Below, in pieces: positions 1 to 12,123 of a DNA stretch of 12,123 nt. The DNA comes from a virus (Duplodnaviria > Heunggongvirae > Uroviricota > Caudoviricetes). How positions within the stretch are numbered: position 1 is the first letter of the stretch; every line of letters begins with the position of its first letter. The position numbers were made by a program, and so were the translations under genes. Location of the stretch: IMG/VR virus record IMGVR_UViG_2802429235_000002, positions 1-12,123 of that record. One strand, given 5' to 3'. Below the pieces are notes generated by a model. The model was given only the letters and a program-made list of their open reading frames with translations. It had not been told where the DNA came from and did not search any database.

Positions 1-56
1 AGGCCAGTAATGGGTTAAGTGATAACAGGTGTCTGGAAATATAGGGGCAAATCCAG
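1..56 (+). mobile_element. Insertion-sequence terminus (IS2-like, IS3 family), element body lying outside the window to the left
   Basis: Bases 1-56 are the exact reverse complement of 12068-12123. The motif TGTCTGGAAATATAGGGGCAAATCC matches my recollection of the IS2 right-end inverted repeat; family assignment is from memory, not a search. Confidence 0.5.
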
Positions 57-230
57 TAAATGCCCTTACTGTCGCATTTTCATATCTGGCATTCTCAATT
101 CCCAAGGAACAAATGCAACCAACACTGGCATCGCTCCAGCTTGAATCACTCAACCCCAAATGGTCCCAGCAACAACAAAATTCTTTCAAGTGGCTGGCGG
201 TATTACTGGAAGAAAAATATGCTGGTGAAA

Positions 231-575
231 TTACCATTTCGGCGGAGTCTTCAGTGAACCAGTAATTCTTCCCGGCAGTTTTCCTTTGTAGGTTATCCAC
301 ACACCCTGCGCCTCTAAAATTATGGGGCGCTTTTCCGGTGACTGCTCATCCCCTTCACATAACCCTGCAGCAACATCCAGGAAGACCTGTCTGATGCTCC
401 TTCTGGCTGCTGCCTCATAAAACTCCAGCGCGGCACCTTCAACACGGTCCAGCGAGATGTCCAGGTCTAAAATTTCACCGTCAAAGCGTTTTTTGTCCCG
501 TAACGCTAAAGTTACCGTAACTTTATTCTCAAAATTGCGGATCCCTTTCACAATCAGTTCATAGTTTTGAGTCAT
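231..575 (-). CDS. Hypothetical protein (114 aa) immediately downstream of the holin, same strand
   Basis: ATG at 573-575 with a GGGGAGAG Shine-Dalgarno-like sequence upstream; starts 4 nt after the holin stop, so probably co-transcribed. No motif recognised; it is not an endolysin-like sequence. Confidence 0.5.
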   Translation of the reverse strand: MTQNYELIVKGIRNFENKVTVTLALRDKKRFDGEILDLDISLDRVEGAALEFYEAAARRSIRQVFLDVAAGLCEGDEQSPEKRPIILEAQGVWITYKGKLPGRITGSLKTPPKW

Positions 576-579
576 TGAA

Positions 580-795
580 TTACTCTCCCCGTGCAGCCTT
601 ACGCTTATCTTCTTTAATCTTGAAATAAAGATTTGTCAGATACGTCAACAGGCCAAACACCAGACTACCCAGCACACCTATTGCTGCCCACTGTGAGGGC
701 GTGACTCTATCGAGCAACTGTAAAAACCAGTAGCCAGCACTGCCTGCGGAGGTGCCATAGGCGACACCTGTTGTTAACTTATCCATGGATTTCAT
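580..795 (-). CDS. Phage class II holin/pinholin, phage 21 S family (71 aa)
   Basis: The translation [71 protein letters not shown] closely resembles the S21 holin as I recall it, including the dual-start Met1/Met4 arrangement and two transmembrane segments. GAGGTG ribosome-binding site upstream of the ATG at 793-795. The longer 102-aa ORF in the track is a 5' over-extension. Confidence 0.8.
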
Positions 796-1134
796 AACCC
801 CCACCTCGCAGATGCGGGCGCTGTGTAATGGAAACAAAAAATGGCCACCAGCGGCCCGTAAAAAACACCCCGTCAAAAGCACCGGCATCCGCAGATGCCC
901 TTTGCGTGGCGTTATTTGATGCGCGCCAGGTGTGGCGCAAAGAAATGAAATAAGACTTATCGAAAATTAAGGTTAATTTGATGATTTAAACCACTTCTGA
1001 AGCTTAGTAGTATGAACATGTCCCCAGAAGGGGCCAATACTTATTATTCTTCATGGACTTTGTCCCGCGGTCTTAATCCGACGACCGCGCTACTTTTCAC
1101 CCTCTCGCAAATTGCTATCTAAAGGACGTTGTCC

Positions 1135-1167
1135 CACGAGTATTCCTGTATGCTCGTGTCTTTTTTT
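1135..1167 (+). terminator. Candidate intrinsic terminator, plus strand
   Basis: CACGAG (1135-1140) pairs with CTCGTG (1153-1158) around a 12-nt loop, followed by TC and a run of seven T (1161-1167). Confidence 0.3.
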
Positions 1168-1180
1168 GTCCTGAGAAAGG

Positions 1181-1209
1181 AATAAAAAAAACCGCCAGAT
1201 ATGGCGGTT
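1181..1209 (-). terminator. Intrinsic (rho-independent) terminator, minus strand, downstream of the tRNA pair
   Basis: Perfect 8-bp stem AACCGCCA/TGGCGGTT (1190-1209) with a 4-nt loop; on the minus strand it is followed directly by a U8 tract (plus-strand A run at 1184-1191). Confidence 0.7.
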
Positions 1210-1571
1210 GGTCAATGCAAGGGATGAATTTTTTAATTGTTATTAAACCGAGGCGTCGGGTGCCTCCCGAAGTATTCCGTGCTGCATGGATACTGTGGTT
1301 TCCCGCTAAACCGACTCTTTAAACCACCCTCGCACTGAGGAGCGCCTCTGTGGTGCTTTTACAACACCAAAATGATGCATCACCGACCCTGCCAGGAAAT
1401 ACAAAATCTCCACCGATAATGCACCATTCTGCTGCCGTAAAAAATTAGCACTGAGGCTACACCCGGCCTCAAATCATAGCCAGAGAACAGAATGCTTTTT
1501 CAAAACAACCTGCTCCCACGTAATAAAAAAATACGCCAGTGCCGTAATACAATAAGGCTTGTTTTAAATGC

Positions 1572-1646
<75 letters not shown>

Positions 1647-1649
1647 ATA

Positions 1650-1725
<76 letters not shown>

Positions 1726-1977
1726 ATTGGTTCTTCAGGGGAGCGATATCACCGAGCGATATCACCGAGCAAAGAAGAGTTCCCCCTCAGAACCGTTTTC
1801 GATGATACGATTTAATATTCCAATCGCAACAACACTTTGCGTCAAGCTATGTAAATTTATTTATGTATTTTTATTTTATGTGAACATTTCACCTTCACTT
1901 AAAATATACGCGACAATATATAAACAAATTTATTTTGAAGGCAATATTAAATGTCGTTTCTTATATCACACCATAAT

Positions 1978-2010
1978 AACAACAAAACCCGCTTGATGGC
2001 GGGTTCTATT
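1978..2010 (-). terminator. Intrinsic terminator about 85 nt downstream of the Q-like gene (tR'-like position)
   Basis: Perfect 7-bp stem AACCCGC/GCGGGTT (1989-2008) with loop TTGATG; on the minus strand it is followed by TTTTGTTGTT. Confidence 0.55.
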
Positions 2011-2090
2011 AAAGTTTAATTGCGCTTGATTCGCCTCGCGATACAGCTTTGCGAAGCGTAGCAAAATTGAAGCAGTTTACGCGTAAAAAA

Positions 2091-3985: not shown

Positions 3986-4141
3986 TTACTCCTCAGGTTC
4001 GTAAGCTGTGAAGACAGCGACCTCCGTCTGCCCGGTTCGGATTCGTACCTCGCAGAGGTCTTTCCTCGTTACCAGTGCCGTCACAATGACGGTTAAACAG
4101 ATGACGATCAGGGCGATTAACATCGCCTTTTGCTGCTTCAT
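3986..4141 (-). CDS. hokD: Hok/Gef-family type I toxin (51 aa)
   Basis: MKQQKAMLIALIVICLTVIVTALVTRKDLCEVRIRTGQTEVAVFTAYEPEE matches the Hok family and, from memory, E. coli HokD/RelF. AAGGAG ribosome-binding site 9 nt upstream of ATG 4139-4141. An in-frame upstream ATG at 4198 gives a 19-aa N-terminal extension. Confidence 0.85.
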   Translation of the reverse strand: MKQQKAMLIALIVICLTVIVTALVTRKDLCEVRIRTGQTEVAVFTAYEPEE

Positions 4142-4352
4142 AGCCTGCTTCTCCTTGCCTTTCGGCACGTAAGAGGCTAACCTACATGTGCAAAGCATGA
4201 AATTGGCCTCAGATTAATGTTAAGCGTCTTGCCGGACGCGTAATGTTAACTGGGGCTTTTCTCTATCTGCCTTTGGTGTTCATGCCCGAGGCAGATAGCC
4301 TCAAGCACCCGCAGCAATTCTACTTAACTCCCGTCACCTCGCCAATATAAAA

Positions 4353-4442
4353 TCAATCAGAAAGGCGATCCATAAGAACAACAGCAAGACAATAAATTGC
4401 TATTACAGCAGCAATAGCCAGCGCACATTTGAGAACCAGCAC
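4353..4442 (-). CDS. Candidate small hydrophobic peptide (29 aa): MLVLKCALAIAAVIAIYCLAVVLMDRLSD
   Basis: Consensus AGGAGG Shine-Dalgarno 5 nt upstream of a GTG start at 4440-4442; single predicted transmembrane helix; sits between the hok gene and the 3' end of the NTPase gene. Under 60 aa, so absent from the ORF track. Confidence 0.4.
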   Translation of the reverse strand: MLVLKCALAIAAVIAIYCLAVVLMDRLSD

Positions 4443-4810
4443 GACAACCTCCTGTATTGGACGCACACCAGTCCTGATAAATATGAGGCTGTCTCGTCAG
4501 TGATTCAATACAACTATTGGGTATAGTTTATCTATTTTTTCTTTGGCAATGGAACACAACAGCCAAACATAACCAACACTTCTTCAGATGTATTAAGTCA
4601 GGCCCCAACCAGCATTTTGAGTAAGCAGTTCACTCAAATATGACTATCTGATTTGAGCGACGTGCGAACATTTACGATAGCTTCACTATGATTGATACAT
4701 TCTGCAATCTCTTTGTCTCAGAAAGTCGAAAGTAGCTTAAGCTATATTATCAAGAGGATAATCATCACATTGAAGGTCGATACGTTACCTTCAATGTGAC
4801 AATCTATTTA

Positions 4811-7069
4811 TTATTGAATTTGCAGGTTTGTACGTAAGGAACCTGTAGATTCCTCATATAACTTAGATATATAATTAGACATATCATGGTTACTTCGTAC
4901 TTTTTTATTGAATTTTTTCAGGTACTTATCAACCGTAGTGCTAAGTAGCCCTGAGTCGTCTGTAACGTGAGTTATCCCTAAATTAATCAAAACACCTAAT
5001 TTATTTTTTTCCACTAAGCTATCAAATGCGGATTTATCCCCGAGCTCATTCAGTGTTGATGCTATGAAGAAACGTGCATAATCAATATGTTCACCAATTT
5101 CCTCATATTGTTCAATTTGAACTGACAAGTCTTCCAAGGCAGATTTGAAAAAATCATATGCGTAATTGTTACTTAAACACTTTGTGAAAATACAAAGAAG
5201 AGCTACTGGTGAAAACTCCTTCAGCGGGATGTCGGTATTTCCCTTGAGAATATCAACATATAATTTACCTGCATCTATATATGATAAAAGGACTCCCCTC
5301 GTTATTTTTTTATACGGAGTTAGATATGAAGCCAAATAAAAAGAACCGTTATAAAATAACCTTAAAAATCTTGTTTTATCGTTACTAGGTTTAAGTTCAT
5401 TAATTTTATCAATAAGATATTCATTGTCTCTTAACAAACCAAAATAGAAGAAATAACTATTTGCCCAATAAATATCATAAATATTATCATTTATGTCTAT
5501 TAGGCCACGCTTCCTAAGTCCTTCAGCGTAAAAATACTCCATGAATGATCTGTGTAGAAATGAGAACGTATTACTTCTAACATTAACTGTTGTTACTTCA
5601 CTGCGATAAATTAGTCTTTTGAAAAGTTTGTCCTCATCAACATTCAAGTTTCTTTTGGCCAAATAATTTAAAAACATGTCCTGCACTTCTGAAATTGATA
5701 TGCAGTTTAGAGAGTTATCCATCATAAATATCGCAATTTCTACTAATATATTACTTATTACATCATATTCTGTTTGCGATAATAATCCCTTAGATGTATC
5801 CCATCGTCCCAATACTATCTCACTGTATTTTGAGTATAGTTCTGTCATTGTAGATGGTAATTCTTTAATCTCATCAGAGAGTATTCTTGCCAGAAGAATA
5901 GCGCTCACTGGAGTCCTGGGAATGAACTTAAATAGTGGTGTTTTTTCTATACCATTTTTAAGTTTATTTGTTATTTTAATGTCATTGCAGATTTTATCTA
6001 CAAAGTCGATTATTTGACCTGTGCTAAGTGGTATTATCGAGTATCTTGCAAACATCTGATCGATAACTTCATAGTCCTGAAGAGAATCCATAATTCTTGA
6101 AGCAACTAGTAATCGAATTTTATCATTCCTGGATACTTTCTCTACAATGTCCCTGAAGTTGTTTTGCCTTTCCTCAAGTGATTCCTTTACTTCATCCACC
6201 GAATCAACAATTAATAAAATATTCCCATCATGTTGTATTTTGTACTTACTTAACACACTTTGTATTATATTTTCAACATTAAGTTTTTTTTCTAGAACAT
6301 CCTTGTATTGACAAAATACTGGAAGGATGTAGTCTTTTTCGTAAGAATATTCTTCTTTTATTTTTCTAATTAACTGTTTCAGCAAAGTACTTTTCCCAGA
6401 GCCAACGGTTCCCTCTAAAAAAATAAATCTCTCGGCTCTCACAACACTATACAGTTTTAACGGCCTGTGTCTGCGTTTTTTATGATCTTCCTTGCTTACA
6501 TATCTATCAATAAGGTTATTTATGCCAACACTACCAAAAAAAGAGCTTTCAGGTGTATCACTTATGGTTTGCAATGTATCTGTTAAGTATTGTTCATAAT
6601 TAATGGATTCGAAATCCCAAAACTCTGGGTAATATTTACTGATTAAAGAACATATTTTTTCACCCTCTATAAATTTTATATTTGTAGATTTGAATTTCAA
6701 GTAAATTTTTTCTTGAGCATTATTTGAGATCGATGAATTAGTAATAACCCAAATTTCATTCAAATGTATGTTCTTAGAGCCAGAAGAAATAAAGCGTGGA
6801 TATAATTGACACTCTTCTATTTGTCGTTCAACCTCACTATTTGACTGAATTATCTTTCCAACTTTACAAATAACACCAATATATATTTCCTCGTCTAATG
6901 CCTCATCTCGTTTAATTATGACAAAATCAGCACCTTTTTCTGATGGTCCTTGCTTATATTCAACATGTGTAACAGTCGGCAAACGTGGTAGAAGCGCTCT
7001 TGGCACTGGATGGAAATCATCAACCTCACGTTGCAATGATTCTATTTTTCTTAAGTATTCTGGTTTCAT
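4811..7069 (-). CDS. NACHT/STAND-type P-loop NTPase, NLR-like (752 aa), with an unassigned N-terminal domain and helical C-terminal region
   Basis: Walker A GTVGSGKST (codons at 6386-6412); Walker B LLIVDSVDE (NACHT-style hhhhD-x-x-DE) followed by LLVASR, resembling the NACHT sensor-1 hhhTSR motif. About 205 aa precede the P-loop and about 270 aromatic-rich residues follow the NTPase core. AAGGT ribosome-binding site 7 nt upstream of ATG 7067-7069. The gene is conspicuously AT-rich compared with its neighbours. Confidence 0.8.
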   Translation of the reverse strand: MKPEYLRKIESLQREVDDFHPVPRALLPRLPTVTHVEYKQGPSEKGADFVIIKRDEALDEEIYIGVICKVGKIIQSNSEVERQIEECQLYPRFISSGSKNIHLNEIWVITNSSISNNAQEKIYLKFKSTNIKFIEGEKICSLISKYYPEFWDFESINYEQYLTDTLQTISDTPESSFFGSVGINNLIDRYVSKEDHKKRRHRPLKLYSVVRAERFIFLEGTVGSGKSTLLKQLIRKIKEEYSYEKDYILPVFCQYKDVLEKKLNVENIIQSVLSKYKIQHDGNILLIVDSVDEVKESLEERQNNFRDIVEKVSRNDKIRLLVASRIMDSLQDYEVIDQMFARYSIIPLSTGQIIDFVDKICNDIKITNKLKNGIEKTPLFKFIPRTPVSAILLARILSDEIKELPSTMTELYSKYSEIVLGRWDTSKGLLSQTEYDVISNILVEIAIFMMDNSLNCISISEVQDMFLNYLAKRNLNVDEDKLFKRLIYRSEVTTVNVRSNTFSFLHRSFMEYFYAEGLRKRGLIDINDNIYDIYWANSYFFYFGLLRDNEYLIDKINELKPSNDKTRFLRLFYNGSFYLASYLTPYKKITRGVLLSYIDAGKLYVDILKGNTDIPLKEFSPVALLCIFTKCLSNNYAYDFFKSALEDLSVQIEQYEEIGEHIDYARFFIASTLNELGDKSAFDSLVEKNKLGVLINLGITHVTDDSGLLSTTVDKYLKKFNKKVRSNHDMSNYISKLYEESTGSLRTNLQIQ

Positions 7070-7099
7070 TTGTTTACCTTAAACAGTATCCAAAAAAAT

Positions 7100-7135
7100 C
7101 ATTTTATATAACAATCATATTTCATACAATGTCAA
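7100..7135 (-). promoter_or_regulatory. Candidate sigma70 promoter for the NTPase gene
   Basis: On the minus strand a consensus TTGACA (plus 7130-7135) is followed 16-19 nt later by a TA-rich stretch (TGTTATATAA), about 35-60 nt upstream of the ATG. The exact -10 hexamer is ambiguous. Confidence 0.35.
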
Positions 7136-7170
7136 CTATTAGACTCTTTTTCAACATTATAAACCTATTA

Positions 7171-7500
7171 TCAAAGACTAAGGCGACGGATTTCTCCGTC
7201 AGGTAATGACCAGATAAGGTCAGGATCAACCACAACCGGTTTCTTCACCTTTGCCCTTGATAGTTTTTTGCGGGCGTTTTGCCAGTCTTTACGAACCTGT
7301 TCTGAGGGAAATAACCCGTAACCAGAGTTGTATACATCACCGCTCGCAACCAATTCTCTGGCAAGAAGGTTCATCAGATATCTTGTCGCACCTGTCTTAG
7401 CTTCCAGTTGTCGTAACGTCTCGCGCCCACTCTGGCGCACGAGTTCAACAACCTGCCCTTTAATTTTTTCCCGCCCTTCTTGTGTAAATACTTTTGCCAT
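7171..7500 (-). CDS. Hypothetical protein (109 aa)
   Basis: Start chosen at ATG 7498-7500 with a GGAGG Shine-Dalgarno 5 nt upstream (the track's 114-aa version begins 15 nt earlier). Normal GC content, co-oriented with the replication genes. Confidence 0.55.
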   Translation of the reverse strand: MAKVFTQEGREKIKGQVVELVRQSGRETLRQLEAKTGATRYLMNLLARELVASGDVYNSGYGLFPSEQVRKDWQNARKKLSRAKVKKPVVVDPDLIWSLPDGEIRRLSL

Positions 7501-7515
7501 AAGCGCCTCCGGCAA

Positions 7516-9052: not shown

Positions 9053-9910
9053 TTACCCCCTGAAGCCTGGCGGGATCGCACTATCCGGTAACGAGACGGT
9101 GTTAACCTGTCGGAGTAACGTCTCAGGTCGAACACCTTTTGGCGCGAACAAGCCCTGGTATTCATTGGCGATGCTGTGTCGAATCACCTGCTCAGGTGAA
9201 AAACCCTGCTGGCGGAATTTTTCCAGCTCCCGTATCGCCCCGTTAGCGCCCTGCTCCGTTCGAATCGGTTTACGCAATGCCTGGCGAAATTCAACCCACT
9301 CACGCCAAAGCGAGACAGAAATCCAGTTCGGCAAAGCAATATCCAGAGGGTCAAACTTTTTGACACCTCGATTCCCCCGGGGGGGATTTAGGGGGGGATC
9401 TTTTTTTAGATCTTTATCTGTATCTTTATTAGTTGCCTTTGTGTTGACATCATGTTCAAACACCACTTCAACATCTGTTTGAACACCTGTTAAATTTCTC
9501 TCTTGTTTTGTTTGAACATCTGCTTCCTTTCTGCTTCTTCTGGCCTGAACAGATGCTTTTCCTGCGGCTGATTTTTTGGTTAATTTTTCCCTGACTGATG
9601 CCAGATCTTCCTCAATCCGAAGATGCACTCATTCCTCGCCGTTATCGCAAAAAAACTCCTGCAAGGATGGTTCAACATCAGCCCATCGCTCGTTAGTCAG
9701 ACGGGCAATTTTTGCCAGCCTGTTTTTAGGTATTGGCTTTCCTGTTTGCCAGTAATTGAACATCAGCAACAAATACGCACCATGCTCCTCTGCTGACAAA
9801 TGCATGGTGTCAGCCAGGTAATCAGCTATGTACAGTTGCATGTATGGTAATGCGGCCATAATTGCCCCGTATGATGCTGCCCGGTTGCTTAGAATAAGCA
9901 CAAACAGCAT
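9053..9910 (-). pseudogene. ydaU: YdaU-like replication-region gene interrupted by a single in-frame TGA
   Basis: Track ORFs 9629..9910 (93 aa) and 9053..9628 (191 aa, GTG at 9626-9628) are in the same frame, separated only by TGA at 9629-9631. The combined length of 285 codons equals my recollection of intact E. coli YdaU. Confidence 0.5.
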
Positions 9911-12067: not shown

Positions 12068-12123
12068 CTGGATTTGCCCCTATATTTCCAGACACCTGTT
12101 ATCACTTAACCCATTACTGGCCT
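12068..12123 (-). mobile_element. Insertion-sequence terminus (IS2-like), inverted copy, element body lying outside the window to the right
   Basis: Exact reverse complement of bases 1-56; identity stops precisely at 56 bp. Confidence 0.5.

Follow-up and report, generated by a model that had tools for sequence, protein, structure and literature searches.

A Rac-type prophage cargo gene of Escherichia coli nearly identical to the antiphage NACHT gene bNACHT25

The bacterial NACHT proteins bNACHT25 and bNACHT32 have been described as clade-6 antiphage defence proteins (Kibby et al., bioRxiv 10.1101/2022.07.19.500537; Conte et al. 2025, PMC12169576). bNACHT25 senses phages T2, T4 and MS2 via DnaJ and then degrades DNA in a D48-dependent manner; the MS2 coat protein triggers it without being bound, and DnaJ is required (PMC12169576). 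Mutation of the winged-helix histidine equivalent to NLRC4 H443, or the substitution S508P, renders bNACHT25 hyperactive, and the cloned gene is active with 100 nt or more of its native upstream DNA (bioRxiv 10.1101/2022.07.19.500537). Defence by bNACHT32 also depends on D48, and its dependence on DnaJ is less clear-cut than that of bNACHT25 (PMC12169576). The Avs1-4 proteins are likewise single polypeptides that join an N-terminal nuclease, a STAND NTPase and a C-terminal sensor in abortive-type defence. They belong to a different STAND clade, however, and bind phage proteins directly via TPR-like arms, whereas bNACHT25 responds indirectly via DnaJ. NACHT proteins are parted from other STAND proteins by the signature D[GAS]hDE after Walker B (Kibby et al., bioRxiv 10.1101/2022.07.19.500537).

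The window (the whole 12,123-nt stretch of DNA that was analysed) carries one long open reading frame of this kind, labelled a NACHT domain-containing protein in RefSeq. The probability of a stop-free run of 752 codons arising by chance in sequence of 32% GC is approximately 1e-26.

4811-7069, minus strand: coding sequence of the bNACHT25 allele, 752 aa, ATG to TAA
7001-7003, minus strand: codon 23, CCA (Pro), the private L23P substitution, created, in comparison with strain M8, by a T-to-C change at CDS nucleotide 68

The predicted protein was identical at 742 of 752 residues (98.7%) to WP_001702659.1, which is bNACHT25 of E. coli ECOR11, and aligned to it without gaps. The two share their length of 752 aa, their three domains and the residues D48, K226, H506 and S508, and the bNACHT25 gene occupies the same Rac-type prophage position (as in locus L003), with a nearly identical upstream region of about 110 nt. 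The dN/dS ratio relative to bNACHT25 was 0.07, and the values obtained overall were 0.06-0.07. Identity to bNACHT32 (WP_057688292.1) was 614 of 749 residues (82%), again without gaps and with the same architecture; bNACHT32 falls into a separate 90%-identity cluster whose members come mainly from the Enterobacter cloacae complex, with an Enterobacter kobei plasmid as a further location. Further homologues, 88-91% identical, reside on an IncFII plasmid and in a Citrobacter island; another, with 59% identity, adjoins a Providencia resolvase. The gene is thus very probably an allele of bNACHT25, a clade-6 bacterial NACHT protein that forms an NLR-related antiphage system by itself, and it belongs to an accessory cassette of a Rac-type E. 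coli prophage. A sequence-only reading of the locus had proposed an antiphage NACHT gene, and the match to a protein whose defence function was shown experimentally (bioRxiv 10.1101/2022.07.19.500537; PMC12169576) bears this out. That reading had also presented the gene as a candidate; as a near-identical allele of published bNACHT25, it is already known and named and is not a new candidate.

Ten substitutions separate the protein from bNACHT25 (L23P, V109I, K235R, I265V, S315N, V318I, M447I, T499S, A590T and H609K). Nine of these are also present in the common allele WP_033801850.1 of strain M8, from which the window protein differs by L23P alone; at the DNA level one synonymous change is added. 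L23P falls within FHPxLxxL, a conserved motif in the nuclease domain. It is private and lies at a position where all 39 other aligned members have leucine, so that the activity of the window copy is only putative. An alternative would be that the gene is bNACHT25 by descent and that this copy is inactive or weakened, with proline breaking the first helix region of the nuclease and the gene decaying along with a defective prophage. All 39 other family members in the alignment indeed have leucine at residue 23, as do all members of the 90%-identity cluster that were read, and the exact P23 protein was found on just two contigs. The host prophage is decaying at this locus, with a W94 nonsense codon in ydaU and IS copies at both ends of the contig, and elsewhere the gene is found disrupted: strain LD67-1 has it as a split ORF, and in GPEC1446 an IS3 element has inserted at its 5' end. 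Against this, the reading frame is intact, it differs from the widespread M8 allele only by L23P and the synonymous change, and its catalytic residues are all unaltered. Residue 23 also lies in the first turn of a predicted helix (residues 21-29), just past the invariant P21, where proline is often tolerated. An inactive or weakened copy is considered unlikely, albeit less so than the other alternatives weighed here.

The domain assignments for the bNACHT25 allele were as follows.

6614-7069, minus strand: N-terminal Mrr-like PD-(D/E)xK DNase effector, residues 1-152, with D48 at 6926-6928 and K69 at 6863-6865
5510-6454, minus strand: NACHT module, residues about 206-520, with Walker A and B, sensor R325 and winged-helix H506
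6191-6217, minus strand: Walker B with DSVDE, part of the NACHT module
5552-5554, minus strand: winged-helix H506, invariant, in FLHRS
4847-5344, minus strand: NCH1 C-terminal helical domain, residues 576-741 (Pfam PF22728, 133 bits, E 1.2e-38)

The protein is a NACHT module flanked by an Mrr-like DNase and an NCH1 domain. Walker A (GTVGSGKST) spans residues 220-228 (6386-6412, minus strand), Walker B (LLIVDSVDE) residues 285-293, and LLVASR, which includes the sensor arginine R325, residues 320-325; all three had been noted from the letters of the 752-codon frame and were found on the minus strand of 4811-7069. The matches to Pfam NACHT (PF05729) and NCH1 scored 36.6 and 133 bits against gathering scores of 26.7 and 27, respectively, so that the profile match proposed as a check was obtained. 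The catalytic and switch residues were invariant over 40 homologues, down to 31% identity. These included D48 and K69 of the nuclease, G223, G225 and K226 of the Walker A consensus GxxxxGK[ST], and D289, D292 and E293 of the NACHT signature, which reads D289-S290-V291-D292-E293. The histidine equivalent to NLRC4 H443 is present as H506, and S508 corresponds to the residue changed in bNACHT25 S508P. The roughly 205 aa that precede Walker A and had been described as extra sequence proved to be real and to contain the DNase effector. The C-terminal 270 aa, described as aromatic-rich, indeed contained 15.2% F/Y/W compared with 8.3% in residues 206-482, the excess being centred on residues 500-580 (24.7%).

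Searches of the PDB by sequence, with the full protein and with a profile of the N-terminal domain, returned no meaningful solved relative, and folds were therefore compared. The AlphaFold2 model had a pLDDT of 84.7, with an all-helical NCH1 domain at about 90. Its top fold matches were the animal NLRs NLRC4, NLRP3 and NOD2, and not the replication or transposition ATPases that would have counted against the earlier reading; the N-terminal domain matched the nucleases FokI, AspBHI and MspJI. The window protein and these NLRs have in common the NACHT fold, both Walker motifs, the sensor arginine and a winged-helix histidine, and bNACHT25 is hyperactivated by mutations equivalent to human NLR disease alleles. 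Unlike animal NLRs, the window protein lacks both an LRR sensor and any CARD or PYD adaptor; it has a fused DNase effector and a helical NCH1 C-terminus.

The sequence-only reading had left the family open between bNACHT and Avs/AVAST. An Avs-type STAND sensor, in which the C-terminus would directly bind a conserved phage structural protein (terminase, portal or capsid), would likewise be built of three parts (a nuclease, a STAND NTPase and a helical C-terminus), and Avs3 and Avs4 were among the fold matches, lower down (rank 20 in one list, ranks 38 and 50 in another). Animal NLRs outranked them, however, no Avs model of PADLOC matched the protein, and the NACHT-specific DSVDE together with the Pfam NACHT match places it in the NACHT clade. 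Furthermore, bNACHT25 is activated by the MS2 coat protein without binding and needs DnaJ (PMC12169576), and Pfam gave no TPR match in the C-terminus, which is NCH1. An Avs-type sensor is accordingly considered very improbable, and the NACHT half of the earlier assignment is retained. Of the proposed effector-NTPase-sensor plan, the N-terminal effector (the Mrr-like DNase) and the central NTPase stand; the C-terminal domain is NCH1, and sensing would be indirect, via DnaJ, as in bNACHT25.

The PADLOC search that had been suggested for the gene recognised no system: no model of PADLOC-DB v2 recognised the protein, the best match being HerA (23.6 bits), which covered residues 219-318 in the NTPase core. 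NCBIfam likewise gave weak P-loop matches only, with no NLR or Avs model. Automated defence annotation can thus miss a validated system.

The bNACHT25 allele lies in an AT-rich insert with sharp borders.

4585-7182, no strand assigned: AT-rich cargo cassette, 2,598 bp, 32% GC, delimited by homology breakpoints against four prophages with other cargo
7171-7515, minus strand: DUF977 gene, cut short at the upstream junction and matching positions 1-99 of the 134 in the Pfam DUF977 profile
3989-4310, minus strand: hokD toxin and sok antisense RNA on the downstream side (Pfam HOK_GEF)

Both the coding sequence and the cassette have 32% GC, and the rest of the window 47%, consistent with the earlier remark that the gene is more AT-rich than its phage neighbours. 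Homology ended at 7183 in all four prophages with other cargo (L002, L007, L008 and L009); on the other side the breakpoint was 4534 in L008 and 4584 in the remaining three. At the upstream junction the last 33 codons of DUF977 are replaced by LSL and a stop codon, and PGAP marks the gene incomplete. No direct or inverted repeats indicative of transposition or site-specific insertion were detected at the cassette junctions, and no small ORFs or non-coding RNAs were found inside the cassette beyond the main gene. The sok RNA was located at 4136-4310 (Rfam, 115.8 bits). In the conserved flank, a hydrophobic ORF of 37 aa was observed at 4353-4466; it had no family match.

The gene is situated between the replication genes ydaU, ydaV, DUF1627 and DUF977 and the late-regulatory block of hokD and DUF1367/YbcO/DUF1133. 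This agrees with the proposed cargo position between the replication and nin modules, here of a Rac-type prophage, and insertion as a single gene is supported by the different single genes that other prophages hold in the same slot. The gene shows traits of a moron: a composition unlike that of the host phage, presence or absence between otherwise homologous prophages and sharp junctions. The gene was found in 17 of 5,426 genomes, and its flanks in thousands. Among 50,697 sequenced phage records searched by DNA and protein, neither the gene nor a homologue was found, only the flanks; instead of isolated phages, the carriers seen were Rac-type prophages resident in their hosts and other mobile elements. 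A housekeeping prophage ATPase for replication, transposition or packaging, as might be suggested by the adjoining replication genes and by weak P-loop matches to many ATPase families in the Pfam and NCBIfam tables, is refuted by the near-identity to bNACHT25 and the variable occupancy of the slot (the gene is missing from most Rac-type prophages, unrelated genes take its place, and it also resides on plasmids and islands), and since those matches are limited to the Walker A region and far under cut-offs, we give it next to no credence.

Candidate expression signals of the bNACHT25 allele were located on both sides of the coding sequence.

7105-7135, minus strand: promoter candidate, TTGACA (7135-7130), a 19-nt spacer and TG-n-TATATA (7113-7105)
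7077-7080, minus strand: Shine-Dalgarno AAGG, 7 nt 5' of the ATG
4765-4799, minus strand: hairpin 12 nt past the stop codon, with perfect 13-bp arms, an 18-bp stem when extended and no T-run

A promoter and a Shine-Dalgarno sequence belonging to the gene itself had been claimed. The AAGG (7080-7077) and the TTGACA are present, but the promoter is weaker than stated: no canonical -10 hexamer occurs at 16-18 nt from TTGACA, and a consensus promoter scan, in which no canonical sigma-70 promoter passed for the gene, did not include the TTGACA site and listed 18 sites, not above the shuffle expectation of 13.1 (sd 4.3). TTGACA and TATATA occur in the same register at a Citrobacter locus (L010, 87% DNA identity). 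The hairpin, with a predicted RNA folding energy of -23.2 kcal/mol (z -5.0), falls in the segment common to the window and that locus (window 7160-4743), where it and the promoter elements travel with the gene. The gene may be transcribed from its own promoter in the lysogen.

The numbering of D48, H506 and S508 agrees with that published for bNACHT25, and by analogy the L23P-bearing allele would act as the published protein does. In the proposed mechanism, the resting protein would be autoinhibited and nucleotide-bound, held in this state by the winged-helix H506 of the NACHT module. Infection by T2, T4 or the RNA phage MS2 would perturb the host proteome, and the disturbance would be sensed via the chaperone DnaJ, DnaK also taking part, in the fashion of a guard protein. 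The NACHT module would then switch on and, as in other NLRs, probably oligomerise. Finally, the D48-dependent Mrr-like PD-(D/E)xK nuclease would degrade cellular DNA, stopping phage replication and halting growth of the infected cell. The identity, the three domains and the catalytic and switch residues in this scheme derive from sequence and structure here; the phenotype, the D48 and DnaJ dependence and the hyperactivation derive from the papers.

Other E. coli prophages carry at the same slot SIR2, RelA/SpoT (PADLOC PDC-S33, 5e-119) and DUF5677 genes, and further occupants include an alpha/beta-hydrolase, a QueH-like gene, DUF7167 and unnamed single genes; the cargo of L002 encodes a 269-aa protein of this uncharacterised kind. 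The literature searched yielded no specific description of a defence hotspot at this position in Rac or lambdoid prophages, and none of the papers covered pairs 'Rac prophage' with 'NACHT'. Tentatively, and as a suggestion that falls somewhat short of probable, the slot between DUF977 and hokD/sok may serve E. coli prophages of the Rac type, and related lambdoid ones, as a hotspot for antiphage defence that has not been catalogued; separately, L23P could represent natural variation in an NLR-like receptor, with loss of function or an altered threshold.

Little is at stake for the gene itself, bNACHT25 being among the best-studied bacterial NLR-related defence proteins. The private L23P allele offers a ready-made test of a conserved motif in the N-terminal nuclease domain. 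The SIR2 and RelA/SpoT genes found in the bNACHT25 slot suggest that more defence genes could usefully be sought there, and, as the slot holds these and other single genes besides bNACHT25, its uncharacterised occupants could be new defence genes.

A single long ORF was found at 4811-7069 on the minus strand of the window, which is the entire contig PTRI01000041.1 (assembly GCA_002965965.1) and matches an E. coli Rac-type prophage. The ORF runs from ATG to TAA and encodes 752 aa; the chance probability of 752 stop-free codons at 32% GC is about 1e-26. The ORF and the three motifs noticed in the sequence-only reading were all recovered:

Residues 220-228: Walker A, GTVGSGKST
Residues 285-293: Walker B, LLIVDSVDE
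Residues 320-325: LLVASR

The NACHT assignment was borne out by the Pfam NACHT profile (36.6 bits against a curated cut-off of 26.7). PADLOC, also suggested in that reading, did not recognize the window protein, as searches of the PADLOC-DB v2 and NCBIfam profiles returned P-loop noise alone. In RefSeq the annotation is 'NACHT domain-containing protein', with accession WP_033801850.1 for strain M8. Two characterized clade-6 bacterial NACHT proteins have this architecture, bNACHT25 (WP_001702659.1, E. coli ECOR11) and bNACHT32 (WP_057688292.1) (bioRxiv 10.1101/2022.07.19.500537; PMC12169576). The window protein was 82% identical to bNACHT32, a member of the 90% identity cluster of hit P0009, and identical to bNACHT25 at 742/752 residues without gaps; by this identity, the NACHT gene is an allele of bNACHT25. 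WP_001702659.1 is itself annotated at the same prophage position in strain LC-1302-2020. The gene is thus already known, named and mechanistically studied, and the antiphage interpretation was supported, with refinements, by near-identity to a published defence protein.

An exhaustive homologue search gave 305 clusters (50% identity) at E <= 1e-30; among the 150 clusters listed, most were about 760 aa and aligned end to end with the window protein. The dN/dS ratio was 0.07 against bNACHT25 and 0.06 against a Citrobacter homologue. Across 40 full-length homologues (identity down to 31%), G223, G225 and K226 of Walker A, D289, D292 and E293 of Walker B, the sensor arginine R325 and the winged-helix histidine H506 were invariant. 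The DSVDE of the window protein matches D[GAS]hDE, the signature separating NACHT from other STAND NTPases (Kibby et al., bioRxiv 10.1101/2022.07.19.500537). For an AlphaFold2 model built from the same alignment (mean pLDDT 84.7), Foldseek ranked NLRC4, NLRP14, NOD2 and NLRP3 highest among PDB structures, in agreement with the NLR-like character proposed; Avs3 first appeared at rank 20. Every NACHT-clade feature testable from sequence or structure was present, as were all those of the clade-6 bNACHT25/32 group; the phenotype of the window allele would be that known from bNACHT25. Avs/AVAST, the other family offered in the sequence-only reading, was rejected: no Avs profile of PADLOC-DB v2 matched, the NACHT signature was present instead, and published sensing by bNACHT25 is indirect.

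The N-terminal domain resembled a nuclease. Pfam Mrr_cat matched the full protein weakly and the N-terminal domain scanned alone at 20.9 bits (cut-off 21), with matches in 19 of 22 family N-terminal domains. E15, E44, D48, K69, Q83 and E105 were invariant in the family alignment. The modelled order alpha-beta-beta-beta-alpha-beta corresponds to a predicted PD-(D/E)xK core, in which D48 opens strand 2 and K69 closes strand 3. Pfam NA-iREase1 ('NACHT-associated inactive restriction endonuclease') also matched weakly in 13 of the 22 domains (best E 0.0013); D48 and K69 are nonetheless kept in the family matching it, and catalytic activity has been reported despite this resemblance (PMC12169576). 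At the other end, the last 270 residues were indeed aromatic-rich (15.2% F/Y/W versus 8.3% in the NTPase part), the excess being concentrated at residues 500-580.

Expressed from its native regulatory region, bNACHT25 gives E. coli protection from DNA phages, T2 and T4 among them, and from Emesvirus RNA phages, MS2 included (PMC12169576). D48A abolishes both defence and infection-linked DNA degradation. MS2 coat protein is enough to activate the system without binding bNACHT25, activation requires the host chaperone DnaJ and the DnaJ-DnaK interaction, and a guard-type mechanism was proposed (PMC12169576). Mutation of the winged-helix histidine, or S508P, causes D48-dependent toxicity, paralleling equivalent human NLRC4 disease alleles, and phage T5 orf015 counteracts bNACHT25 (bioRxiv 10.1101/2022.07.19.500537). 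Since D48, K226, H506 and S508 are all retained in the window protein, with unchanged numbering, the best-supported inference is that this mechanism carries over: the window allele would act by DnaJ-dependent sensing followed by D48-dependent DNA degradation.

Upstream of the NACHT gene on the minus strand lie, in order, HTH regulators, ydaT, ydaU, ydaV (IstB/DnaC-like), DUF1627 and DUF977, which are prophage immunity and replication genes; these neighbours (ydaU, ydaV, DUF1627 and DUF977) supported the reading as prophage cargo, downstream of the replication genes. Downstream are hokD with sok RNA, then DUF1367, YbcO, DUF1133 (Q-like), two tRNA genes and a holin. Features of this neighbourhood were:

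9629-9631, minus strand: in-frame TGA in ydaU (W94 to stop), yielding 93-aa and 191-aa ORFs
4353-4466, minus strand: 37-aa strongly hydrophobic ORF MRPIQEVVVLVLKCALAIAAVIAIYCLAVVLMDRLSD in conserved unannotated flank
3989-4310, minus strand: hokD toxin gene and sok antisense RNA (Rfam RF01794, 115.8 bits for sok)
1572-1725, minus strand: tRNA-Gly(tcc) and tRNA-Thr(tgt), flanked by the Q-like gene and the holin

Since ydaU is split here and intact in strain M8, this copy of the prophage seems to be in decay. Window 1-2028, around the tRNA genes, differs from the M8 prophage. The window ends (1-56 and 12068-12123) are inverted copies of one 56-nt sequence, which matches the terminus of an IS3-family element at L003:3983-4035, in the locus with WP_001702659.1; the 12,123-bp contig is either bounded by IS copies or broken by the assembler at both ends. 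The MRPIQEVVVLVLKCALAIAAVIAIYCLAVVLMDRLSD ORF overlaps a terminator-like hairpin (4399-4418) and had no match in a family search; it may be either a small membrane peptide or a spurious ORF.

Homology to four E. coli prophages with other cargo (L002, L007, L008 and L009) ended at 7183 in 4/4 and, on the far side, at 4584 in three and at 4534 in L008. These breaks therefore define a 2,598-bp cassette at 4585-7182. The AT-richness reported for the gene was confirmed and extends over this 2.6-kb block (32% GC versus 47% in the remaining window). The upstream junction lies inside the DUF977 gene (7171-7515, minus strand), whose last 33 codons are replaced by three (LSL-stop), and hokD/sok lies in conserved flank about 275 nt past the downstream boundary. 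No flanking repeats were found at the cassette ends. Among 5,426 complete E. coli genomes, only 17 contained at least 80% of a gene-plus-flank query (window 4400-7400), against thousands with the flanks. Comparison of window 4585-7182 with L002:5186-6425, L007:2887-4819, L008:2822-4383 and L009:2887-4388 revealed different single genes per lambdoid prophage. Occupants included a RelA/SpoT-domain gene (PADLOC candidate PDC-S33, 5e-119), SIR2-family, DUF5677, alpha/beta-hydrolase, QueH-like and DUF7167 genes, and unnamed ORFs, one encoding a 269-aa protein. The DUF977-hokD slot has the look of a hotspot for defence or accessory genes; no description of it as a defence hotspot was found in the literature searched.

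Homologues at 88-91% identity were lone genes on a Citrobacter island, which carries an integrase, an IS and a zeta toxin, and on an IncFII conjugative plasmid (L012:7001-9259), where an integrase and a GmrSD/HEPN gene pair adjoin the homologue. Close homologues (82-88% identity, including hit H87, NZ_AP022432.1) are carried by conjugative and large plasmids of Enterobacterales, and a Providencia homologue (59% identity) adjoins a resolvase. None was found among 50,697 sequenced phage records. Of the expression signals noticed in the sequence-only reading, a Shine-Dalgarno AAGG lies 7 nt 5' of the ATG and TTGACA is present at 7135-7130; a canonical -10 at 16-18 nt is missing, and the site was not listed by a consensus promoter scan. 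The candidate is best read as TTGACA, a 19-nt spacer and TG-n-TATATA. A hairpin (-23.2 kcal/mol, z -5.0) lies past the stop codon. The Citrobacter locus has window 7160-4743 in common, and with it both the TTGACA/TATATA candidate and the hairpin, which suggests that these signals travel with the gene.

Of the ten substitutions that separate the window protein from bNACHT25, nine also occur in the common M8 allele; the tenth, L23P (codon 23, window 7001-7003), is private to the window allele. Residue 23 is Leu in 39/39 other aligned homologues and in every close allele read; it falls within conserved FHPxLxxL, where a predicted helix (21-29) makes its first turn. The exact P23 protein is recorded on 2 contigs only, and L23P may be neutral, inactivating or a sequencing error. 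Damaged copies of the gene occur elsewhere, as a split ORF in LD67-1 and with an IS3 insertion in GPEC1446. Two residual points of modest interest are L23P, as a natural variant at a residue that all other aligned homologues share, and the DUF977-hokD slot, as a possible defence-gene hotspot.
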